From positions 1 through 8,626 of the IMG/VR virus record IMGVR_UViG_2698536618_000012: a stretch of 8,626 bases of DNA. One strand, 5' to 3'. The notes beneath the pieces were generated by a model. It was not told the origin of the DNA. It searched no databases and was given only the letters and a program-made list of their open reading frames with translations. Below, piece by piece: positions 1 through 8,626 of this stretch. The stretch's first letter is position 1; each line of letters begins with the position of its first letter. This DNA comes from a virus. Its lineage: Duplodnaviria > Heunggongvirae > Uroviricota > Caudoviricetes. The position numbers were made by a program, and so were the translations under genes.

Positions 1-303
1 GAGGATGACCCTCGTAATCAGGTTAATTTTCTTTATGAGCCATCGGAAAGACCATATTGTCATCACGCCTCTGTTCGGGTTGACGAAAAAGAGCGTCAGG
101 TCCGCTGTAAAATCTGCGGTGCAGTTGTGGAGCCATTTGACTGGATGCTCTCTGTGGCGAAAAGAGAAACCAGACTGGCAGATGATGTAAGGCACTTGCG
201 CCAGGAGGAGCGGGAAAGGCGAAAAAATATAGAAAAGCTAATTCAGATTGAGCGTAACGCGAAAGCGCGGATACGCAGGGCGACAAAATCCAGAACTGAA
301 TAA
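1..303 (+). CDS. 3' part of a hypothetical phage protein (5' end outside window); Cys/His zinc-ribbon-like motif followed by a charged, coiled-coil-like tail
   Basis: Frame 1 is open from base 1 to TAA at 301-303 (100 codons). Translation ...YCHHASVRVDEKERQVRCKICGAVVEPFDW...RHLRQEEREGRKNIEKLIQIERNAKARIRRA is protein-like. The overlapping track ORFs 5..190(+) and 23..355(-) look less protein-like. No family recognised. Confidence 0.45.
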   Translation, partial: EDDPRNQVNFLYEPSERPYCHHASVRVDEKERQVRCKICGAVVEPFDWMLSVAKRETRLADDVRHLRQEERERRKNIEKLIQIERNAKARIRRATKSRTE

Positions 304-396
304 TTAAATTTAGCTCTGTTAAAAATTTAATCCTTAACCGGAGGGATTTCTGCACCCTCAGAACATCAGGAGGCCGCCCGAAAGGGCGGTAGTTAA

Positions 397-579
397 ATGC
401 GAAAGTTTAAAATAATTATTGAAACGGGAATAGCCGGTGGAGATTTCGAGGATGAATTCGAAGTGGATGATGATGCGACGCCTGATGAAATACATGACGA
501 AGCAAAAGATATTTTCTTTAACTACTGCAATTACTCATATCACGAAATAAAAGACGAAGAGGAAGAGCAAAATGGCTGA
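397..579 (+). CDS. hypothetical small acidic protein (60 aa)
   Basis: ORF from the track; ATG at 397 follows an in-frame stop. Its stop overlaps the start of the next ORF (ATG 572 / TGA 577-579). Very acidic composition typical of small nin-region phage ORFs. Confidence 0.45.
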   Translation: MRKFKIIIETGIAGGDFEDEFEVDDDATPDEIHDEAKDIFFNYCNYSYHEIKDEEEEQNG

Positions 580-748
580 TTTTGGTTCAACTAAATACAA
601 CGTCAGTTTTGAAGCATGGCATGAACTGTTAATGGACTATGCAGAGTTACGTGGTGGCAGTGCTGCTGATGCTGAAGCATGGCGTGATGATTATGAAGCA
701 GGAAAAACTCCGGTCGAAGCATATTGTGATGAGTGGGGCGATGAATGA
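572..748 (+). CDS. hypothetical small acidic protein (58 aa), translationally coupled on both sides
   Basis: Own translation: MADFGSTKYNVSFEAWHELLMDYAELRGGSAADAEAWRDDYEAGKTPVEAYCDEWGDE. Its stop TGA 746-748 overlaps ATG 745 of the next ORF (ATGA). Absent from the track only because it is under 60 aa. Confidence 0.4.
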   Translation: MADFGSTKYNVSFEAWHELLMDYAELRGGSAADAEAWRDDYEAGKTPVEAYCDEWGDE

Positions 749-1260
749 GCGAGATTAATTATCAGGAAGGGCATGAAACGGCAGGGCAGGCAAAACCAGT
801 TGCATGGCGATATCGCTACGTGAAAAAAGACGTTACAGACTTTCAGGGGAAGCCGTGGGCTGGTGACTGGAAATATGTACCGACAAAAGAGGATTGTAAC
901 GACAGGCCGAACTATGAAATTCAGGCCTTATTCATCGGCCCGCCAGTCCCGGTGACATCAGAAGGACTGGTTAAAGCCGTGCGCTTTTATGAACAGGTAA
1001 AGCGTGAGAATCCGCCAGTCGAAACAGGAGCATGGAAGGATGCTGTTGACTGGGTGCTCAGAGAGGCCTGCTGCGCTGCCATTCTGGGTAAAGCCGACAA
1101 TCCACCAGCATCCGGCAATCAGGTTAGCGAATTAACAATGTGGGTTAAACGACTGGTCAGTCAACTGAAAAAAGCGCAGCCGGACTGCAAATTACCGGAG
1201 AAGGCGATGGATTACCTGAAACGAAATGGACTGATAAGCGTGGAGGATGTTTTACGATGA
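745..1260 (+). CDS. hypothetical phage protein (171 aa)
   Basis: Long ORF with ATGA start/stop coupling to the upstream ORF; no recognisable family motif. Confidence 0.55.
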   Translation: MSEINYQEGHETAGQAKPVAWRYRYVKKDVTDFQGKPWAGDWKYVPTKEDCNDRPNYEIQALFIGPPVPVTSEGLVKAVRFYEQVKRENPPVETGAWKDAVDWVLREACCAAILGKADNPPASGNQVSELTMWVKRLVSQLKKAQPDCKLPEKAMDYLKRNGLISVEDVLR

Positions 1261-1380
1261 ATATTTAGACTAAAGAATTTGTAACGCTATGTAAGTGATT
1301 TTTTCTGGTTTAGATATTTATATGTCCGGCCAAATTGAGGTGTGTTTAAATGTTATTGCACATTGATTGTAGGGGGAATA

Positions 1381-1560
1381 ATGAAAAACGCATTGCAGTT
1401 TTTGTTTGTTGCGTTCTGGTTGTTCGCATCATGTATGCCCATCATCTTCACAGCAAGGTATATGGAAAAAATTGATGTTTTGATATTAATGTTTGGACAT
1501 ATAAATGCCCTTTTTTTAGGGGTGTTCATGGCGGTCATGTGCATTGAATACTGGCGGTAA
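1381..1560 (+). CDS. hypothetical small membrane protein (59 aa) in an AT-rich segment
   Basis: ATG at 1381 preceded by SD-like GGGGG (1372-1376). Translation MKNALQFLFVAFWLFASCMPIIFTARYMEKIDVLILMFGHINALFLGVFMAVMCIEYWR has two hydrophobic segments. AT-richness also allows spurious ORFs here. Confidence 0.35.
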   Translation: MKNALQFLFVAFWLFASCMPIIFTARYMEKIDVLILMFGHINALFLGVFMAVMCIEYWR

Positions 1561-1614
1561 ATACAGCGAACGCCATTGGTTTAGTTGGATATTTACTGTG
1601 CCGGACAAAAACGG

Positions 1615-1643
1615 TTTGCGGGGAAATCTTAGTTAAGTAGAAT
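1615..1643 (+). promoter_or_regulatory. candidate sigma70 promoter for the hok mRNA (-35 TTTGCG, 17-nt spacer, -10 TAGAAT 1638-1643)
   Basis: The -10 hexamer is a good match and the -35 is weak. The predicted start near 1650 puts the 9-nt box TGCGGGTGC (1647-1655) at the 5' end of the transcript, and this box is complementary to 2031-2039 near the 3' end. Confidence 0.3.
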
Positions 1644-1818
1644 AACTGCGGGTGCTTGAGGCTATCTGTCTCAGGCATGAACACCAAAAGGCAGATAGAG
1701 AAAAGCCCCAGTTAACATTACGCGTCCTGCAAGACGCTTAACATTAATCTGAGGCCATATCTATGCGACACATAGAGATTAGCCTCTTACGGACCGAAAG
1801 GTCAAGGAGAAGCAGGCT

Positions 1819-1974
1819 ATGAAGCAGCAAAAGGCGATGTTAATCGCCCTGATCGTCATCTGTTTAACCGTCATAGTGACGGCACTGGTAACGAGGAAAG
1901 ACCTCTGCGAGGTACGAATCCGAACCGGCCAGACGGAGGTCGCTGTCTTCACAGCTTACGAACCTGAGGAGTAA
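1819..1974 (+). CDS. hokD: Hok/Gef-family type I toxin (51 aa)
   Basis: Own translation MKQQKAMLIALIVICLTVIVTALVTRKDLCEVRIRTGQTEVAVFTAYEPEE matches the Hok/Gef family signature (single TM helix then TRKDLCEV..R..GQTEVAVF.AYE); to my recollection it matches HokD (RelF) of the E. coli Qin prophage. Confidence 0.88.
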   Translation: MKQQKAMLIALIVICLTVIVTALVTRKDLCEVRIRTGQTEVAVFTAYEPEE

Positions 1975-1981
1975 GAGACCC

Positions 1982-2003
1982 GGCGAGGGAGAAATCCCTC
2001 GCC
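1982..2003 (+). other. perfect 9-bp stem with GAAA tetraloop immediately 3' of hok (GGCGAGGGA-gaaa-TCCCTCGCC)
   Basis: Read directly from the sequence. It sits where hok mRNAs carry their 3' fold-back (fbi) structures. Confidence 0.6.
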
Positions 2004-2042
2004 ACCTCTGATGTGGCAGGCATTCTCAACGCACCCGCACTT

Positions 2043-2070
2043 AACCCGCTTCGGCGGGTTTTTGTTTTTA
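2043..2070 (+). terminator. intrinsic terminator of the hok transcript
   Basis: AACCCGC-ttcg-GCGGGTT: 7-bp stem with UUCG loop, followed by TTTTTGTTTTTATTTT. Confidence 0.75.
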
Positions 2071-2082
2071 TTTTCAACGCAT

Positions 2083-2112
2083 TTGAAGTTCTGGACGGTG
2101 CCGGAATAGAAT
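2083..2112 (+). promoter_or_regulatory. candidate sigma70 promoter upstream of the rem-like gene (-35 TTGAAG 2083-2088, 18-nt spacer, -10 TAGAAT 2107-2112)
   Basis: Hexamers read by eye; lies just downstream of the hok terminator. Confidence 0.3.
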
Positions 2113-2190
2113 CAAAAATACTTAAGTAGCGCGCAGGGATAAGAGGGATGGTCCCTTAAAGGGGAGAGCTAATTATCCGGAAGGATTCTG

Positions 2191-2442
2191 ATGATGAACA
2201 TCGAAGAACTGCGTAAAATTTTTTGTGAAGATGGCCTCTATGCTGTGTGCGTTGAAAATGGAAATATTGTTAGTCATTACCGCATTGTGTGTTTGCAAAA
2301 AAATGGGGCTGCGTTAATTAATTTTGTGGATGCCCGAGTGACGGACGGATTTATCTTGCGCGACGGTGAGTTTGTCACTTCATTACAGGTATTGAAAGAG
2401 ATCGGAATAAAAGCTGGCTTTTCTGCTTTTTCAGAAGAATAA
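2191..2442 (+). CDS. rem: small hypothetical prophage protein (83 aa), Rem-like by size and position
   Basis: ORF with SD-like GGAAGGA upstream. Symbol is assigned by recalled synteny only (hokD - rem - ydfU in K-12 Qin, rem being 83 aa), not by sequence comparison. Confidence 0.5.
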   Translation: MMNIEELRKIFCEDGLYAVCVENGNIVSHYRIVCLQKNGAALINFVDARVTDGFILRDGEFVTSLQVLKEIGIKAGFSAFSEE

Positions 2443-2508
2443 ACTCATCTACAATCTTGCGCGGGGCTGAACTCCCGCTGAGTAACACCGTGCCACCGGA
2501 GAAAACCG

Positions 2509-2787
2509 ATGGCACGCAACGCAAAATATTACAAACATGATAATTCGACCGTTCTTGCCCACACGCACGAGCGGTATTCTCACGCATTTAAGTCAGACTG
2601 GTACCAGCATCCCCCATGCACTGAAGAACAGGCCGAATGGCTCATTCAGTGTTACCGCAGGCGCGGATGCGAGGTTAAAAAAGCCCTTAGCCTCGACTAC
2701 CGTCACTGGATAATCTCCGTCAGGCTTCCTTACTCCGAACACCCACCGCGTCCGTCCCGCACATTCCAGCAACGCATCTGGAGGTAA
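2509..2787 (+). CDS. hypothetical Cys/His-rich small protein (92 aa), possibly metal-binding
   Basis: GGAG 9 nt upstream of ATG 2509; its stop abuts the next gene's SD and start. Contains H..H...C..C..C. May correspond to the DUF1364-type small proteins of nin regions, but that is unverified. Confidence 0.5.
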   Translation: MARNAKYYKHDNSTVLAHTHERYSHAFKSDWYQHPPCTEEQAEWLIQCYRRRGCEVKKALSLDYRHWIISVRLPYSEHPPRPSRTFQQRIWR

Positions 2788-2788
2788 C

Positions 2789-3838
2789 GTGCGGGTATTA
2801 CTTCGACCTGTTCTGGTACCGGAACTCGGGCTGGTGATCGTTAAGCCGGGCCGTGAATCCATGCCGGTATTCCACAATACCCGGGTACTGGTGGAGCCGG
2901 AACCGAAAAGCATGCGTAATCTGCCGTCCGGGGTCGTTCCTGCCGTTCGCCAGCCGCTGGCGGAGGATAAATCATTACTGCCATTTTTCAGCGACGAACG
3001 AGTGATTCGTGCTGCTGGTGGCGCTGGCGCATTGTCTGACTGGTTACTGCGCCATGTTAAATCCTGCCAGTGGCCACACGGCGATTATCACCACAGTGAA
3101 ACCGTCATTCACCGTTATGGTACCGGCGCAATGGTGTTGTGCTGGCACTGCGACAACCAGTTGCGTGATCAGACCTCCGAATCACTTGAGCAACTTGCTC
3201 ACCGAAACTTGTCAGCATGGATGATTGACGTCATTCGTCACGCAATGAATGGCACACAGGAGCGTGAATTATCGCTGGCTGAATTATCCTGGTGGGCGGC
3301 CTGCAATCAGGTGGTGGATGCACTACCTGAGGCAGTAGCGCGTCGTTCGCTGGGATTACCAGCGGAAAAAATCCGCTCCGTATACCGTGAGAGTGACATC
3401 GTACCGGGAGAACAGACAGCCATCAGCATACTGAAGCAGCGCACAAAAAATATTGCGCTGCCACTTCACGTCCACCAGCAACAAAATCCACCACAGAAAA
3501 AAACGGTTGTCAGTATCGCCGTTGATCCGGAGTCTCCTGAATCGTTCATGAGGCGACCTAAACGTTGCCGTTGGGTTAATGAGAAATACACGCGCTGGGT
3601 AAAGACACAGCCGTGTGCGTGTTGTGGTAAGCCTGCTGACGATCCGCATCACCTGATTGGTCATGGTCAGGGGGGAATGGGGACAAAGGCCCACGATATT
3701 TTCACGCTACCGTTGTGCCGGGAGCACCACAACGAACTTCATGCAGACCCGCTGGAGTTTGAGAAAAAGTACGGCTCTCAGATTGAGTTAATTTTTCGTT
3801 TTCTTGATCACGCCTTTGCAACTGGCGTGCTTGGGTAA
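2789..3838 (+). CDS. ydfU: DUF968/YdfU-like prophage protein (349 aa) with a C-terminal HNH-like Cys/His motif (putative nuclease)
   Basis: GTG start 2789 with GGAGG 4 nt upstream. C-terminal PCACCGKPADDPHHLIGHGQGG...LPLCREHHNELH is HNH/zinc-finger-like; a second Cys/His cluster is CQWPHGDYHH...CWHCDNQ. Length and position upstream of rusA fit the YdfU/DUF968 family as I recall it. Confidence 0.75.
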   Translation: MRVLLRPVLVPELGLVIVKPGRESMPVFHNTRVLVEPEPKSMRNLPSGVVPAVRQPLAEDKSLLPFFSDERVIRAAGGAGALSDWLLRHVKSCQWPHGDYHHSETVIHRYGTGAMVLCWHCDNQLRDQTSESLEQLAHRNLSAWMIDVIRHAMNGTQERELSLAELSWWAACNQVVDALPEAVARRSLGLPAEKIRSVYRESDIVPGEQTAISILKQRTKNIALPLHVHQQQNPPQKKTVVSIAVDPESPESFMRRPKRCRWVNEKYTRWVKTQPCACCGKPADDPHHLIGHGQGGMGTKAHDIFTLPLCREHHNELHADPLEFEKKYGSQIELIFRFLDHAFATGVLG

Positions 3839-3850
3839 AAGAGGTGACTG

Positions 3851-4210
3851 ATGCTCATAGATTTGGTTTTACCTTACCCGCCGACGGTGAACACTTACTG
3901 GCGACGCCGTGGCAGCACATATTTTATCTCGGAGGAGGGAAAGCGTTATCGCCGGGCTGTGGCGCTTATTGTTCGCCAGCAGCGGCTGAAATTAAGCCTG
4001 TCCGGAAGGCTGGCGATAAAGGTGATTGCAGAGCCACCGGATAAGCGTCGTCGCGACCTGGACAACATTCTGAAAGCACCGCTGGATGCGCTGACGCATG
4101 CGGGAGTGCTCATTGATGATGAGCAGTTTGATGAAATCAATATTGTACGTGGTCAGCCAGTATCTGGTGGACGGCTGGGTGTGAAGATTTACAAAATTGA
4201 GAGTGAGTGA
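3851..4210 (+). CDS. rusA: RusA-family Holliday junction resolvase (crossover junction endodeoxyribonuclease)
   Basis: 119 aa with SD AGAGG 7 nt upstream. Translation carries the RusA hallmarks (N-terminal LPYPPTVNTYWRRRG, catalytic-region RRRDLDN, C-terminal GG.L...I) and aligns by eye with E. coli RusA. Confidence 0.9.
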   Translation: MLIDLVLPYPPTVNTYWRRRGSTYFISEEGKRYRRAVALIVRQQRLKLSLSGRLAIKVIAEPPDKRRRDLDNILKAPLDALTHAGVLIDDEQFDEINIVRGQPVSGGRLGVKIYKIESE

Positions 4211-4218
4211 GCGTAAAT

Positions 4219-4749
4219 ATGATATATCCGGAAATTACAGGCAAAAGCGGCGAACATTTACGCCTGAACACGCTGGAAGCAGTCTGGATCCAGGGGAAAT
4301 TACGGATGTGGGGGCGGTGGTCGTATATCGGTGGGGGTAAATCCGGAAATATGTTTAACCGGTTACTGGTTTCGAAAAAGCTGACGAAAACAGCAGTTAA
4401 TGAGGTTTTACGCAGAATGAAGAAATCCGGGCTGGAAAAACCGGAACTTGAGGCATTTTTTCGGGATATGACAAGAGGAAAGCAGAAGAGCTGGTTGTCA
4501 CATTGTACAGACACAGAGGCGTTGATTATTGATCGCGTTATCAGTGAGGTGCTTGGGGAATATCCCGGGCTAATCAATATTCTCCGGCAAAGGTACGAAG
4601 GACGGGGAATGAGTAAGAGAAAAATGGCAGAATGTTTAAATCGTACTCACCCGGAATGGTGTTTCAGCACATGTGAGAAACGTATTGCAGGTTGGTTAGC
4701 CGTGGCTGAACACATGCTTTATGTACCTATGCACGATTCATTTCGATAA
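4219..4749 (+). CDS. putative late-gene antiterminator (Q-like) protein, 176 aa; functional assignment is positional
   Basis: ORF immediately downstream of rusA (the canonical Q position in lambdoid phages) and followed by a hairpin-rich leader and strong intrinsic terminator. ATG 4219 is preferred over GTG 4207, which overlaps the rusA stop. No Q-family motif could be verified by eye. Confidence 0.55.
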   Translation: MIYPEITGKSGEHLRLNTLEAVWIQGKLRMWGRWSYIGGGKSGNMFNRLLVSKKLTKTAVNEVLRRMKKSGLEKPELEAFFRDMTRGKQKSWLSHCTDTEALIIDRVISEVLGEYPGLINILRQRYEGRGMSKRKMAECLNRTHPEWCFSTCEKRIAGWLAVAEHMLYVPMHDSFR

Positions 4750-4845
4750 AAAAAGCTTGCTTTTTTACGCAGAAACAGCTTGAATTCCTGTAAGCTTCGC
4801 AAAGCTGTATCGCGAGGCGAAATGCAAGTTTTTTCGCACAAGGAA

Positions 4846-4867
4846 GCCACCGGAAGGTGGTTTTTTT
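4846..4867 (+). terminator. strong intrinsic terminator after the Q-like gene (tR'-like)
   Basis: GCCACC-ggaa-GGTGG(T) stem followed by TTTTTTT. Preceded by another hairpin, GCGAAA-tgcaagttt-TTTCGC (4817-4837). Confidence 0.75.
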
Positions 4868-4990
4868 GTGTCCGTAATATACAGCAGCGCAATAAATTCG
4901 CTGGTGGTTATTAATACCGTTCTTTCAGCTTGCTGGCTTTTTCGACAAGAGTTATTGGTGTGTCACGTTAACCGGAAAAGGGAAAAAGGC

Positions 4991-5188
4991 ATGCTAAAAC
5001 AGCAGGATATGACCGAAACCGCCAGAGTGGTGTTTAATGAATTAAGCGTCACCGAACCGGCGACCGTCGAGGAAATTGCGCAGAACACTTATCTTTCACG
5101 CGAACGCTGCCAGTTAATACTGACCCAGCTTGTTATGGCGGGTCTGGCAGATTATCAGTTCGGTTGTTACAGACGCCTTCCTCAGTGA
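4991..5188 (+). CDS. small winged-helix DNA-binding protein (65 aa), PapI/FaeA-like or controller-like regulator
   Basis: Internal ATG of track ORF 4868..5188 with SD AAGGGAAAAAGG. TVEEIAQNTYLSRERCQLILTQLVMAGLADYQFGCYRRL has a helix-turn-helix-wing pattern. The GTG-extended N-terminus (4868-4990) looks non-coding. Confidence 0.5.
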   Translation: MLKQQDMTETARVVFNELSVTEPATVEEIAQNTYLSRERCQLILTQLVMAGLADYQFGCYRRLPQ

Positions 5189-5198
5189 AGGCTTTTTT
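5175..5198 (+). terminator. intrinsic terminator overlapping the stop codon of the wHTH gene
   Basis: GCCTTC-ctcagt-GAAGGC: 6-bp stem followed by TTTTTTATTT. Confidence 0.6.
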
Positions 5199-5338
5199 AT
5201 TTGTGGTAATGGGCGGCTGGTGGGTGTTAGCGGCACCTGCCAGCCATCTGCTCATGCGTTGGGGTCACAAGCAAACCTCAGGCCCATCTGCTTTGCGCAA
5301 AAGCGGTATGAGCCTATCAGAGAAGTGCTTATTGATCT

Positions 5339-6418
5339 ATGGCTAATACTGTAAAAATATCCAGTTGTGAGTTAATCAACGCTGATTGCCTGGAATTTAT
5401 CCAGACCTTACCGGAAAACTCTGTCGATCTGATAGTCACAGACCCGCCATACTTTAAAGTGAAGCCCGAGGGCTGGGATAACCAGTGGAAGGGCGACGAT
5501 GATTACCTGAAGTGGCTGGACCAGTGTCTGGCGCAGTTCTGGCGGGTGCTGAAACCTGCCGGAAGTCTTTACCTGTTCTGTGGCCATCGCCTGGCATCTG
5601 ATATCGAAATCATGATGCGTGAACGCTTCAGTGTGCTGAACCATATTATCTGGGCGAAGCCGTCCGGACGCTGGAACGGATGCAACAAGGAAAGCCTGCG
5701 GGCGTATTTCCCCGCCACAGAGCGCATTCTGTTCGCGGAACATTATCAGGGGCCGTATCGTCCGAAAGATGCCGGGTATGCGGCGAAGGGCAGTGCACTG
5801 AAACAGCATGTGATGGCCCCGCTGATTTCTTACTTTCGTGATGCGCGTGCTGCTCTGGGGATAACGGCAAAACAGATTGCAGATGCCACAGGAAAGAAAA
5901 ACATGGTGTCGCACTGGTTCAGTGCCAGTCAGTGGCAGCTACCGAACGAAAGCGATTATCTGAAATTACAGTCGCTGTTTGCCCGGGTGGCAGAAGAGAA
6001 ACATCAGCGGGGTGAACTGGAAAAGCCACATCACCAACTGGTCAGCACATACAGTGAGCTGAACCGGCAAAACCGGCAATATGCCAGCCTGCTGGAGGAG
6101 TACAAATCTTTGCGGCGTTATTTTTCTGTATCGGCTGCTGTTCCGTATACGGATGTCTGGATGTATAAGCCTGTACAGTATTATCCGGGCAAACACCCCT
6201 GTGAAAAACCGGCAGATATGTTGCGTCAGATAATAGAGGCCAGCAGTCGTCCGGGTGATTTGGTTGCCGACTTTTTTATGGGGTCAGGTTCCACGATAAA
6301 AGCCGCGCTTTCGCTTGGTCGTCGGGCAATAGGCGTTGAGCTTGAGGCTGAACGGTTTGAGCAGACGGTGAGCGAGATAAGAGAAATTCTGACGTGTAAA
6401 GCTGTTGAAAATATATAA
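5339..6418 (+). CDS. orphan beta-class DNA methyltransferase (N6_N4_Mtase family; DPPY motif suggests N6-adenine)
   Basis: 359 aa. Catalytic motif IV DLIVTDPPYF lies near the N-terminus and the AdoMet-binding motif I DFFMGSGST near the C-terminus, with a roughly 200-aa target-recognition region between. This is the beta-class order, and overall architecture resembles YhdJ-like adenine methyltransferases. No restriction endonuclease gene is evident nearby. Confidence 0.9.
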   Translation: MANTVKISSCELINADCLEFIQTLPENSVDLIVTDPPYFKVKPEGWDNQWKGDDDYLKWLDQCLAQFWRVLKPAGSLYLFCGHRLASDIEIMMRERFSVLNHIIWAKPSGRWNGCNKESLRAYFPATERILFAEHYQGPYRPKDAGYAAKGSALKQHVMAPLISYFRDARAALGITAKQIADATGKKNMVSHWFSASQWQLPNESDYLKLQSLFARVAEEKHQRGELEKPHHQLVSTYSELNRQNRQYASLLEEYKSLRRYFSVSAAVPYTDVWMYKPVQYYPGKHPCEKPADMLRQIIEASSRPGDLVADFFMGSGSTIKAALSLGRRAIGVELEAERFEQTVSEIREILTCKAVENI

Positions 6419-6480
6419 GTATGGGGTGTAAAGTTGTTCTCGAAAATAATCATGTTTTCTCACGAATCAGAGGGGGGATA

Positions 6481-6741
6481 ATGATTGAGGTTCGATGGAC
6501 AAGGACAGCCCTGAAGCAGTTACTTCGTGTGGATACGCGGTATCGGCAGGCGATAAAGGATAAGGTCGGTGCGCTAAAGGATTTTCCTCTGGTAGCCATG
6601 GATTTTAAAAAGCTATCAGGGAGTGACAATCGATTCCGTTTGAGGGTCGGCGTGTACAGGGTTATTTTTGATGTTGAGGATGGTGATCCTGTTGTCCTGG
6701 ATATTAAGGAAATTAAGCGCAGAAGCACAACCACATACTAA
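6481..6741 (+). CDS. type II toxin, RelE/ParE superfamily (toxin-first, HigB-like gene order)
   Basis: ATG 6481 with strong SD GAGGGGGG 5 nt upstream. The 86-aa product has the RelE/ParE pattern (..RFRLRVGVYRVIFDVEDGDPVVLDIKEIKRR...Y). The track ORF start at 6421 is probably an over-extension. Confidence 0.8.
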   Translation: MIEVRWTRTALKQLLRVDTRYRQAIKDKVGALKDFPLVAMDFKKLSGSDNRFRLRVGVYRVIFDVEDGDPVVLDIKEIKRRSTTTY

Positions 6742-6801
6742 GGGAGGCTGGCGGGAGACCGCCAGTTTGCTGAACGACATTCAATCGCGAAAGGCAATGA
6801 T

Positions 6802-7176
6802 ATGAAAAACAGTGTCCAGTTTATTACTGATAATGCCGGTGTTAGAACCGGGGTCATTATGTCAGTTGCTGAATATGAACGGCTGTTAAGTCTGGCAGAT
6901 CCTGATGATGATTTTGAAAGCATCCAGTATGAAGCCGGAGAGCATGACAATGAAACAATACCTCATGAAGTAGTATCCATCATGATTGATGATGATGTGT
7001 CATTGTTGGCAGCATGGCGGATTTACAGGCGAATGACTCAACAGGAAGTGGCGGAGCGCCTGGGGGTTAAACAGTCAGCCGTATCTCAGTTTGAGAGAGC
7101 AGGAGCTCCGCGAAAATCAACACTGGAAAAACTGGCTGAGATTTACAACTGCCGACCAAATCAGTTGGCTGATTAA
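6802..7176 (+). CDS. antitoxin with N-terminal Phd/YefM-like segment and C-terminal XRE-type HTH (124 aa)
   Basis: AAGG 7 nt upstream of ATG. N-terminus NAGVRTGVIMSVAEYERLLSL resembles the YefM/Phd motif; C-terminus LLAAWRIYRRMTQQEVAERLGVKQSAVSQFERAG...LEKLAEIY is a classic HTH_XRE. Lies directly downstream of the toxin. Confidence 0.8.
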   Translation: MKNSVQFITDNAGVRTGVIMSVAEYERLLSLADPDDDFESIQYEAGEHDNETIPHEVVSIMIDDDVSLLAAWRIYRRMTQQEVAERLGVKQSAVSQFERAGAPRKSTLEKLAEIYNCRPNQLAD

Positions 7177-7321
7177 TCCTGAGTTTGGTTTTCGTAGCGA
7201 TTGCATTTTTCTTATCTGCTTGCCGTTGTAGGTAGCGTGTATTTGCATGTTGTTTTGTAGTTAACCTTATGGTTGGCTGAATTTTGTTCATCAATAAAAA
7301 ATATCCCTCTCTGATCTTTAA

Positions 7322-7346
7322 GGTTCGCTTTGGCGGACCTTTTTTT
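7322..7346 (+). terminator. intrinsic terminator downstream of the toxin-antitoxin pair
   Basis: GGTTCGC-tttg-GCGGACC: 7-bp stem including one G-U pair, followed by TTTTTTT. Confidence 0.7.
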
Positions 7347-7482
7347 ATTTCCGCGCCACGCCCGGCGTACATCAAAAACCACAGAGCCTTTCAGGGGTGA
7401 GCTTACGGGATGGTCAGTGTGACTTTCTCTGTGGGCTGGTCACCCCCGGGCGCAGGCTCACCCACTAAAAGGAAAAGTCACG

Positions 7483-7914
7483 ATGTTTGGTATTTTCAAA
7501 AAGAAAACCCGCAGAGCAGCAACTGAAATTAAAAAGTTTGAGAAACGCGATCTGGCACAGGCGGTTATTAATGCTGCCTACCTGGTGGCCTATGCAGATG
7601 GTGAATGTGAGACTTCAGAGAAAGTGAAGATCGAACAGGTATTACGTAACCAGCCAGCATTGTCCGCATTTACGTCAGAAATTAATGCCATCAGTGCCAC
7701 GATCACAGGTCAGCTTGACACCAATTTTAAAATTGGTCGTCGTGCAGCGTTGCGTGAAATTGAAGATGTGAAACACGATACGCGTGAAGCGGAAGATGTG
7801 CTGGATGTGGCGGTGGCCATTGCTGAAGCAGATGGTGAAATTGAGCCGGAAGAGCGTAAGGTTCTGGAAGAGATTGCTGGTGTTCTTGGCCTGCGACTGG
7901 AGAACCACCTGTGA
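7483..7914 (+). CDS. TerB-domain protein (tellurite-resistance TerB-like, 143 aa)
   Basis: SD AAGGA 8 nt upstream. Two copies of the TerB-type helical motif (hydrophobic-x-A-x-A-D-G-x-acidic...E-K/R): AAYLVAYADGECETSEKVKIEQVL and DVAVAIAEADGEIEPEERKVLEEIAGVLGL. Confidence 0.7.
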   Translation: MFGIFKKKTRRAATEIKKFEKRDLAQAVINAAYLVAYADGECETSEKVKIEQVLRNQPALSAFTSEINAISATITGQLDTNFKIGRRAALREIEDVKHDTREAEDVLDVAVAIAEADGEIEPEERKVLEEIAGVLGLRLENHL

Positions 7915-8078
7915 CGGTAAAACTGCGTCTGGCCGCTGTGGCACTCCTGCTGTTTCTGGTGGTGATGGTGGATTTCACCAGCAGGATCATGTCGGTGCTG
8001 GCGGATGGAGTGCTGGTCTGCGGCATTGTGGTATTGCTGTGGCCGGTGATAAAAAGAAACAGCCTGCATAATGCTTGA
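7911..8078 (+). CDS. small two-helix membrane peptide (55 aa), translationally coupled to the TerB-like gene
   Basis: GTG 7911 overlaps the TerB stop (GTGA); GGAGAA sits 6 nt upstream. Own translation VTVKLRLAAVALLLFLVVMVDFTSRIMSVLADGVLVCGIVVLLWPVIKRNSLHNA shows two hydrophobic stretches. Not in the track (under 60 aa); an alternative start at ATG 7965 would give 37 aa. Confidence 0.45.
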   Translation: MTVKLRLAAVALLLFLVVMVDFTSRIMSVLADGVLVCGIVVLLWPVIKRNSLHNA

Positions 8079-8243
8079 TTTTTTTGTTTGCTGTTTATTA
8101 AAAACACTTCTGCATGGTGAATCCCCCTGTGCGGTGGGGCAATCAGCAAGAAGGAATATGGGGTAATCGCGGATTCAGGTGCTGATACTGAATTCACCGG
8201 GAGGCACCCGGCACCATGCAAGAAAAAGAATGTGCATGCAAAC

Positions 8244-8271
8244 ATGCCCCTCTCCGGAGGGGCATTTTTTA
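8244..8271 (+). terminator. strong intrinsic terminator (9-bp stem ATGCCCCTC-tccg-GAGGGGCAT followed by TTTTTT)
   Basis: Read directly from the sequence. An adjacent hairpin GCCCGAA-tggg-TTCGGGC (8284-8301), preceded by AAAAAA, would act as a terminator for the opposite strand, so the pair may be bidirectional. Confidence 0.7.
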
Positions 8272-8363
8272 TGGGTAAAAAATGCCCGAATGGGTTCGGG
8301 CAATAGCATGAGATACTGATATTGTTGTGTTGTTATCGTGTGGATTTTAACCAGGGTTTATCA

Positions 8364-8389
8364 GGCTGCGCAACTGCGTGGCCTTTTTT
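8364..8389 (+). terminator. candidate intrinsic terminator (8-bp stem with two G-U pairs, loop AACT, followed by TTTTTT)
   Basis: GGCTGCGC-aact-GCGTGGCC followed by TTTTTTC; a second terminator only about 95 nt after the previous one. Confidence 0.5.
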
Positions 8390-8396
8390 CATTTCT

Positions 8397-8443
8397 TGGG
8401 CTGTAGTCCCCGTGTGTCATTCAGGCTTCCGGACTACAGCCCA
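8397..8443. repeat. 13-bp perfect inverted repeat with 21-nt spacer (TGGGCTGTAGTCC ... GGACTACAGCCCA)
   Basis: Read directly from the sequence; lies about 45 nt upstream of the ATG at 8486. Confidence 0.7.
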
Positions 8444-8485
8444 CTCCATATCTGATTTAATACACTATCCCGGCCGGGAGGAATA

Positions 8486-8626
8486 ATGACATTTAAACAT
8501 TATGATGTTGTCAGGGCGGCGTCGCCGTCAGACCTTGCGGAAAAGCTGACACACAAACTGAAAGAGGGCTGGCAGCCGTTTGGTAGTCCGGTGGCCATAA
8601 CCCCTTATACCCTGATGCAGGCGATT
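8486..8626 (+). CDS. 5' part of a hypothetical phage protein (continues beyond the window)
   Basis: ATG 8486 with SD GGGAGG 4 nt upstream; open to the window end. Translation MTFKHYDVVRAASPSDLAEKLTHKLKEGWQPFGSPVAITPYTLMQAI. May be a DUF1737-type small protein found near lysis cassettes, but this is unverified. Confidence 0.6.
   Translation, partial: MTFKHYDVVRAASPSDLAEKLTHKLKEGWQPFGSPVAITPYTLMQAI

Follow-up and report, generated by a model that had tools for sequence, protein, structure and literature searches.

Eight prophages of Escherichia coli O157 Sakai share a layout in which Q is followed by the late promoter PR', moron coding sequences, a convergent pair of small RNAs (sRNAs) and a conserved phage open reading frame (ORF) (Tree et al. 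2014, PMC4104026). In Stx phages, PR' is constitutive, the transcripts of the lysogen end at the terminator tR', and Q-modified polymerase reads into the stx and lysis genes (Sy et al. 2020, PMC7547250). Here, we analyze an 8,626-nucleotide (nt) stretch of a Caudoviricetes virus (IMG/VR record IMGVR_UViG_2698536618_000012, positions 1 to 8,626; hereinafter, the window) that spans the junction between the early-right and late regions of a lambdoid E. coli prophage, with hok/sok, a DUF968 gene, rusA and a Q-like gene followed by a cargo island at 4750-8485. We interpret this island, with a probability of about 0.7, as the PR'-proximal cargo ("moron") site of an Stx-phage-like prophage that consists of exchangeable cassettes and works in the manner proposed below. 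The architecture of such islands has already been published (Tree et al. 2014, PMC4104026), and the window presents a new combination of cargo at a well-understood site. What is new is a terminator-leader-cargo module in front of the gene for a TerB-domain protein; it is robustly supported, includes an apparently uncatalogued RNA family and reaches well beyond the window.

The island resembles the site of Tree et al. 2014 in the succession of Q, late terminator, moron coding sequences, convergent sRNAs (of the AgvB/AsxR type and a partner), phage ORF and lysis genes, but its cargo is a RelE/helix-turn-helix (HTH) toxin-antitoxin (TA) pair and the genes for TerB and a DUF3927 protein, not stx; the rare TA pair stands in place of tRNA genes, and the terminator-leader module is not described in that paper. 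In Stx2_EH2201 (LC567829), the order is Q, a winged helix-turn-helix (wHTH) gene, a DNA methyltransferase (MTase) gene, three tRNA genes, stx2A, stx2B, STnc100, iraM on the minus strand, nanS-p and the lysis genes. Stx2 phages (LC567829; phiP27, NC_003356) thus share with the window the upstream wHTH-MTase pair, STnc100 directly after the cargo, and nanS-p with the lysis genes downstream, whereas their tRNA genes and stx2AB are represented in the window by the TA pair and the terminator, leader, TerB and DUF3927, and their minus-strand iraM-like gene by AgvB. In the locus of one Stx2a phage (L005), STnc100 (149.5 bits) lies 75 nt after stx2B. The common order in non-Stx relatives is MTase, tRNA(CAU), tRNA-Arg, TerB, DUF3927, STnc100, AgvB on the minus strand and nanS-p.

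The homology to Stx2 phages at both flanks, combined with sharp breakpoints at 4859, 6366 and 7321, implies that the TerB-DUF3927 pair is a positional alternative to stx2AB and the TA pair an alternative to the tRNA genes. The initial annotation had described the position of the island as stx-locus-like, and this is literally the case, both ends being homologous to the stx2 locus; the protein-coding genes it named (Q-like, wHTH, methylase, TA, the TerB/membrane pair and the ORF at 8486) are all present on the plus strand, as judged from Pfam matches and ORFs. The lysis genes that it expected downstream are found in relatives of 93-97% identity (loci L001, L002, L004 and L006), where nanS-p encodes a full-length SASA esterase and is followed by holin, lysozyme, Rz and terminase. 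Its view of the interval as a moron hot spot is borne out by a census of 51 complete intervals, which shows cargo swapping in and out: the slot contains stx2AB, TerB-DUF3927, a 118-amino acid (aa) ORFan (11 of the 51 intervals; for example, locus L055, 4157-4513), a DUF3927 remnant or nothing, with intervals down to 516 nt. These cargoes occur in free combination with three Q types, and a fourth Q type has been seen as well, while the order of wHTH followed by MTase is constant throughout the census. The alternative cargo ORFs (118, 120, 132, 92, 89 aa and others) match no Pfam or NCBIfam family.

Altogether, six cassettes are independently exchangeable: Q with its own tR' terminator; wHTH with the orphan DNA methylase; the RelE/HTH pair at the place of the relatives' tRNAs; the terminator, leader, TerB and DUF3927 at the place of stx2AB; the convergent sRNA pair STnc100 (plus strand) and AgvB (minus strand); and a terminator and hairpin leader with nanS-p, beyond which, outside the window, lie holin, endolysin and Rz.

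The module upstream of TerB begins with an intrinsic terminator at 7320-7346 on the plus strand (hairpin free energy -13.4 kcal/mol, z -3.9; here and below, z is relative to shuffled sequence), which in locus L004 follows tRNA-Arg. It continues into a structured 5' leader RNA of about 140 nt (7343-7485, plus strand; 140-143 bits with covariance models) that ends at the ATG of TerB. The leader includes a 5' hairpin, H0 (7353-7357/7364-7368); helix a (7379-7386/7427-7434), which crosses helices b and d and so forms a pseudoknot; helix d (7387-7394/7465-7472), in which CCUUU pairs with the Shine-Dalgarno (SD) sequence AAAGG; and helices b (7395-7404/7454-7463) and c (7412-7416/7420-7424), both composed of complementary segments. 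Sequence comparison makes it very likely that this RNA has a conserved structure with four covarying helices, one of them a pseudoknot; the fifth, SD-burying pairing is partly supported.

Upstream of TerB, relatives from other genera retain the terminator hairpin with wholly different stem bases, and the GC-rich segment of about 115 nt that follows it is 80-99% identical, even beside TerB alleles at 41-43% identity; this second TerB allele has a nearly identical leader. The TerB proteins of Pantoea, Franconibacter, Pseudescherichia and Enterobacter prophages are 88-90% identical in amino acid sequence to the E. coli protein, compared with 33-64% for the flanking Q and lysozyme; by this measure, the phage backbone has diverged far more than the cargo TerB and its leader. 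Further leader copies in the same phages preserve the architecture with different bases, helix a being formed by GAAAG/CTTTC or CGAGAG/CTCTCG and helix b by AAGCGAGCCTG/CAGGCTCACTT.

In a MAFFT alignment of 37 sequences, 93.1% of the cells at the proposed pairs are paired, compared with 38-46% when the partners are slid, and double-sided change occurs at 11 pairs, compared with 1-5 for slid partners and 3.7 +/- 1.3 in shuffled alignments (none of 500 reached the observed value). Because MAFFT misaligned the divergent rows, covariance-model alignments, which are biased towards the structure, were used as well; these yielded 96.0% and 94.8% paired cells for the same set, with double-sided change at 8 of the 8 pairs of helix a and 19 of the 30 nested pairs. 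A second, independent set of 73 distinct sequences, gathered by a pattern scan on two invariant leader segments, gave 96.0% and 93.6%, with double-sided change at 20 of the 30 nested pairs and, again, all 8 pairs of helix a, where alternative pair types are abundant. Thus, over all five counts on the two sets, in which the sequences are related to one another, 93-96% of the cells are paired versus 30-51% with slid partners, 11-20 pairs show double-sided change versus 1-9, and 0 of 500 shuffles reach the observed value. The signal is strand-specific (140 bits on the plus strand versus 13.5 bits on the minus strand) and includes many G-U pairs.

A search of Rfam 15 produced no match over 7343-7485 (E <=1), nor for six more copies in loci L002, L024 and L021 (E <=0.1), and a literal search of the literature for four leader strings returned nothing relevant. 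Two other interpretations of the segment were rejected: as coding sequence, given the 1-nt and 3-nt indels among relatives, and as a sigma-54 promoter at TGGTCACCCCCGGGC, the GG/GC positions of which vary in relatives.

The leader is not confined to TerB. Among the 82 copies, 80 end at an ATG, and the ORFs behind them belong to at least 15 unrelated clusters, including tail-tip-domain proteins (24), TerB (22), an uncharacterised 485-aa protein (8), P22-type antirepressors (7), KilA-N proteins (3), Rha and ORFans. The antirepressor-type copy is present in 313 phage records, among them VT1-Sakai, Stx2 II and Shigella phage 75/02 Stx, and the TerB-type copy in 34; in both Stx1 and Stx2 phages, a copy precedes ant, and the covariance models found none ahead of stx2. 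Of the distinct contexts examined, 51 of 58 and 58 of 70 have a canonical terminator immediately before the leader, built on 40 and 51 different stems, respectively, whereas control windows 300 nt further upstream contain 0 terminators.

Several individual copies deserve mention. In PPompW prophages, the TerB-type leader is broken after about 78 nt, just after CCTTTCA, by the IS110-family element ISEc20, and the fixed insertion point in these records suggests site-specific targeting of the leader. In locus L107 (7150-7216), a copy breaks off at nearly this point and gives way to unrelated DNA. The terminator, leader and TerB also occur in PP818812.1 (17432-17597), at 93% identity to the window; the name of this record, "Actinobacillus phage vB_Apl-pPE4", implies an unexpected host for so close a match.

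The estimated contributions of the helices are about -11 kcal/mol for a, -15 for b and -4.5 for d. In four diverse copies, a is separated from d by 0 nt and from b by 8-9 nt, and the distance from a' (the 3' strand of a) to b' (that of b) is 18-19 nt in the three copies in which a' is correctly placed; the fold with d and b, in which the SD is buried, is the nested minimum free energy (MFE) structure in 3 of these 4 copies. Two competing folds of the leader, one with the SD open and the other with the SD buried, are plausible as models.

We propose that the island works as follows. In the lysogen, transcripts from the late promoter would stop at the tR'-type terminator at 4836-4871, as established for relatives, and the sRNAs and the TA pair would run from their own promoters, given that sRNA expression has been shown for homologues and a TA promoter is predicted. 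Two locks would hold TerB-DUF3927 off: the terminator at 7320-7346, and the pairing of CCUUU in the leader with the SD sequence AAAGG, which would act on translation. After induction, no plus-strand terminator would stop Q-modified polymerase, which would continue into nanS-p and the lysis genes. During synthesis of the leader, strand a would pair first with a' and form the pseudoknot with b. Because a adjoins the anti-SD strand without a linker, the a+b pseudoknot should exclude helix d and leave the SD free. This open form should also be the first to appear, since a' emerges from the polymerase ahead of the 3' arms of b and d. A role of the leader in controlling translation is a tentative proposal, to which we assign somewhat less than even odds, and the kinetic version of the switch ranks lower still. 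That the terminator and the leader together make up a portable "late-only double lock", in which transcription requires Q-modified polymerase and translation requires a particular mode or timing of RNA synthesis or some factor, is an attractive but rather doubtful extension of this idea.

Several considerations weigh against the proposed working of the island. The Q-like protein of the DUF1133 type matches the solved Q21 structure with an E value of 0.17 at best, and this route to Q membership was dropped, so that the predicted Q function of the product of 4207-4749 rests on the Pfam match. A consensus scan for the late promoter detected no sigma-70-like site on the plus strand in 4750-4846, between the Q stop codon and the tR' hairpin. 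The model of island expression by Q-dependent read-through is reasonable and is drawn by analogy with Stx phages. With regard to the leader, four of the five pair counts were made on alignments fitted to the structure; in helix d, covariation is confined to the two pairs adjoining b, and the five core SD pairs are invariant and so uninformative either way; the MFE structure of the window's own leader has a different pairing, and its z-score is only -1.85. Finally, that a and d should be mutually exclusive is a steric argument rather than the outcome of a computation.

Leaders that sequester the SD, such as riboswitches and RNA thermometers, likewise pair the ribosome-binding site within a structured 5' region, and c4 of phages P1 and P7 controls ant at the RNA level; the leader described here differs from these in being coupled to an upstream intrinsic terminator and portable between cargo genes. 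Another parallel is IsrK/orf45-anrP of Salmonella Gifsy-1, a lambdoid prophage in which the read-through mRNA is closed by structure before an antirepressor-type gene (Hershko-Shalev et al. 2016, PMC4825925). The leader, however, has no sequence or Rfam relation to that system and no conserved upstream sRNA body, whereas it does have a pseudoknot and an anti-SD strand, a location in late operons, and at least 15 unrelated cargo families.

Among the alternatives to the proposed working, one holds that each cassette is an autonomous moron expressed in the lysogen from its own promoter, with the terminators serving as insulating 3' ends and Q read-through irrelevant to the cargo. A promoter-like site upstream of the TA pair (6405-6434, detected by scan), the weak hairpin of 5175-5198 at the 3' end of wHTH, and the terminators at 8244-8271 and 8302-8283, which form the 3' ends of sRNAs, all fit this possibility, as does the fact that Tree et al. 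2014 (PMC4104026) detected homologues of these sRNAs in cultures without induction. Yet the terminators at 7320-7346 and 8363-8390 lie on the 5' side of TerB and nanS-p, respectively, and it is the downstream cargo, rather than the upstream gene, that the terminator-leader pair accompanies; in other genera, the TerB terminator comes directly after Q, where there is only the late leader transcript to terminate. A sigma-70 promoter between the terminator and the leader was considered and rejected, because the scan found no sigma-70-like site between 7346 and 7483, and the spacing of 8-33 nt between the terminator and H0 leaves no fixed -10 position. We consider full autonomy of the cassettes unlikely.

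Another possibility concerns the leader alone, which might be an RNA processing or stability element: the d+b stem would be cut out of the late transcript, for example, by RNase III, as at the intergenic sites of phage T7, and H0 would protect the 5' end. In line with this, the stacked helices d and b make up a hairpin of some 18 pairs interrupted by internal mismatches, the H0 hairpin at the 5' edge is both conserved and stable, and copies reside between unrelated genes inside long late operons. Such a function leaves unexplained both the strongly covarying pseudoknot helix a and the invariant CCUUU/AAAGG pairing, which includes the SD, with its fixed distance to the ATG. Processing and switching are not mutually exclusive, but we judge it improbable that processing accounts for the leader.

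The Gifsy-1 precedent raises the further option that a short RNA ending at the upstream terminator opens the read-through leader in trans. The layout fits, in that antirepressor-type genes of lambdoid prophages are preceded by a terminator and then by a leader in which translation is predicted to be blocked; nevertheless, the sequences upstream of the terminator are unrelated between copies (TA mRNA, tRNA-Arg, Q or endolysin) and the stems come in 40-51 variants, which leaves no conserved sequence for a trans partner, and the Rfam isrK model has no match at the leader copies, so that IsrK-type trans-activation is very unlikely. Least credible, indeed close to negligible, is the notion that the leader acts as DNA, as a recombination joint or a transposon target, with the apparent RNA structure a by-product of recent horizontal spread: mosaic breakpoints at or near it (7321), the ISEc20 insertions at one fixed point in PPompW phages, the truncated copy in L107 and the 80-99% identity of TerB-type copies across genera are in line with it, but copies with other cargoes keep every helix with different bases, pairing with many G-U pairs is confined to the plus strand, and the leader always adjoins an SD and an ATG.

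Compared with these alternatives, read-through of a late cargo site with a terminator-leader module remains our preferred interpretation, and the other cassettes are described here in the order of the window. The Q-like gene (4207-4749, plus strand, 180 aa) encodes a putative late antiterminator of the DUF1133 type (368 bits; Phage_antitermQ, 34.5 bits, cutoff 26) and is exchangeable with three other Q types ahead of the same downstream module. It is followed by the tR'-type terminator at 4836-4871 (plus strand; -23.9 kcal/mol, z -8.0), within the hairpin of which, at 4859, homology to loci with other Q types begins. A hairpin with a T-run is kept at this place behind four Q/upstream contexts, with stem bases that differ (CCACC/GGTGG versus CCGCC/GGCGG); tR' is co-inherited with the Q type, as expected for a unit of Q, late promoter and terminator. 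In this respect, and in having a strong terminator some 100 nt beyond the stop codon of Q, the window resembles the lambda 6S RNA and StxS arrangement, differing from the latter in that the distance to tR' is 258 nt in Stx phages (Sy et al. 2020, PMC7547250).

Upstream of Q, the type I TA locus hok/sok is recognizable by an Rfam sok match (106.7 bits, 1650-1821) and a Hok-family ORF (1819-1974) annotated as hokD in relatives. A weak isrK-like match (1983-2064; 26.6 bits, gathering threshold 50) ends at a terminator (2043-2060) just after hok, and the early regions of loci L002, L003 and L005 contain full pairs of isrK and C4 antisense RNA.

Contrary to the initial annotation, which placed wHTH directly after the terminator, its ORF begins at 4991. 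It is preceded by a 67-nt segment (4924-4990) that is invariant in all seven loci compared and more conserved than its flanks, whatever the Q type. The CTTTCAG and AAAAGGGAAAAAG motifs of this segment raised the possibility of a second leader copy, which was rejected because a filters-off search of the whole window matches 7343-7485 alone. The wHTH gene (4991-5188, plus strand, with the start as annotated in relatives; 65 aa) has a weak Pfam match to TrmB (E 0.002), is annotated as a coding sequence in relatives and is labelled "TrmB family" in the RefSeq record of phiP27. Over its stop codon lies a weak terminator-like hairpin (5175-5198, plus strand; -8.9 kcal/mol, z -1.8, with 11 of 200 shuffles folding equally well). 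The orphan N6/N4 DNA MTase (5339-6418, plus strand) has the DPPY motif, seen as TDPPY in the translation, and matches Pfam N6_N4_Mtase (1.2e-44, 153 bits) and PADLOC MTase_II (1.8e-157); its neighbors are wHTH and the TA pair, and no nuclease ORF is found among the adjacent ORFs. The wHTH-MTase module is 89-91% identical at the DNA level to those of Stx2a, Stx2d and Stx2e phages, including phiP27.

The segment at 6367-7320 (plus strand), delimited by homology breakpoints, provides an alternative 3' end of the MTase gene and the TA cassette instead of tRNA-Ile/Met(CAU) and tRNA-Arg: homology to the tRNA-bearing locus L004 is lost at 6366, in the last 17 MTase codons, and is regained where the terminator begins, at 7321. 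These 17 codons (6367-6418) are exchanged along with the cassette, so that the C-terminus differs (354-359 aa versus 352 aa). The toxin gene comes first (6481-6741, plus strand, 86 aa) and encodes a RelE/ParE-family protein (ParE_toxin, 1.5e-07, 32.3 bits, cutoff 23; weak match to the RelE3 structure in PDB, E 0.002); after a gap of 60 nt, it is followed by a candidate antitoxin of the Xre/Cro type (6802-7176, plus strand, 124 aa; HTH_3, 3.9e-12, residues 72-120, 46.5 bits, cutoff 23; 434 Cro in PDB, E 0.003). Judged by gene layout, a predicted RelE/ParE-fold toxin beside a small putative DNA-binding partner in one operon is a candidate type II TA system. The cassette is rare, being present in 11 of 5,426 complete E. 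coli genomes at 14 places, with three copies in one strain, and its place directly after this MTase is constant, even at loci with other cargo and lysis genes downstream. Three matching places are in E. coli O39:NM F8704-2 (NZ_CP050998.1), in which loci L001 and L210 belong to different prophages with different Q types and both have the order MTase, TA, TerB, DUF3927.

The TerB-domain protein (7483-7914, plus strand, 143 aa; Pfam TerB, 3.2e-15) occupies the slot held by stx2A/B in Stx2 phages, and the gene for the small hydrophobic DUF3927 protein (7911-8078, plus strand, 55 aa; 1.7e-16) overlaps its stop codon (GTGA). This pair is also found in prophages of Pantoea, Franconibacter, Pseudescherichia, Enterobacter and Citrobacter, several of which have it between a Q homologue and holin/lysozyme, and DUF3927 follows TerB in 17 of 26 loci of other species. 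In the Pantoea, Pseudescherichia and Enterobacter loci L009-L013, TerB is at 8001-8426. As to the function of TerB, the sole lead is that it weakly resembles the TerB-like domain in DjlA. The defence functions suggested in the initial annotation are unsupported: PADLOC 2.0 has 0 families matching TerB, DUF3927, the RelE-like toxin or Q, and yields only generic matches for the MTase and the HTH protein.

After the cargo comes a STnc100/PasD-type sRNA gene (8083-8276, plus strand; RF02076, 139.4 bits, gathering threshold 47) that ends with a terminator at 8244-8271 (plus strand; -21.2 kcal/mol, z -4.2). Convergent with it, on the minus strand, is the anti-sRNA gene AgvB (8338-8277; RF02702, 96.5 bits, gathering threshold 56), which matches the consensus at 62 of 62 positions and is terminated separately at 8302-8283; an A/T tract is common to this terminator and that of STnc100. 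Both sRNA genes, which fall in the interval 8079-8485, had been overlooked in the initial annotation, which placed all genes on the plus strand. AgvB acts as a phage-derived sponge of the core sRNA GcvB (Tree et al. 2014, PMC4104026). STnc100 is linked in a 2026 preprint to the PasD sRNAs, which are sited upstream of a sialate esterase gene. We rejected 7320-7346 and 8363-8390 as ends of a Pas sRNA, because the same preprint puts PasA by the holin, downstream of the esterase and outside the window.

The sialate O-acetylesterase gene nanS-p begins at 8486 on the plus strand and runs off the window at 8626 (N-terminal DUF1737, 1.1e-16). Upstream of it are an intrinsic terminator (8363-8390, plus strand; -14.9 kcal/mol, z -3.5), kept in 15 distinct relatives, and a 5' leader with a predicted 13-base pair hairpin (8397-8443, plus strand), a perfect inverted repeat in a region with a z-score of -3.2 that is retained in relatives via G-U and compensating changes. 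Pairing of 8415-8432 with the SD/AUG region (8474-8491) is possible, and this leader is of a different family from that of TerB.

Taken together, of the five intrinsic terminators noted initially, four are strong and the one at 5175-5198 is weak; a consensus scan finds 10 terminator-like sites in 4750-8485, compared with 4.2 +/- 2.4 in shuffled sequences. As punctuation between the genes, they are located as described, except that the hairpin at 8244-8271 ends STnc100 and the one at 7320-7346 is the front of the conserved terminator-leader module.

The island confirms the stx slot as a socket for cargo in general, be it toxin, TerB-type or uncharacterised genes, tRNAs or a TA pair, and the sequence signature of the leader also offers a way to detect cargo of late operons in prophages. 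If the leader gates translation, it would be a concrete, testable mechanism that keeps harmful cargo silent in lysogens and turns it on only with the late genes. The double lock, if true, would represent a new class of riboregulators in hundreds of temperate enterobacterial phages and could, by way of the copy ahead of ant in Stx1 and Stx2 phages, also have an effect on prophage induction.

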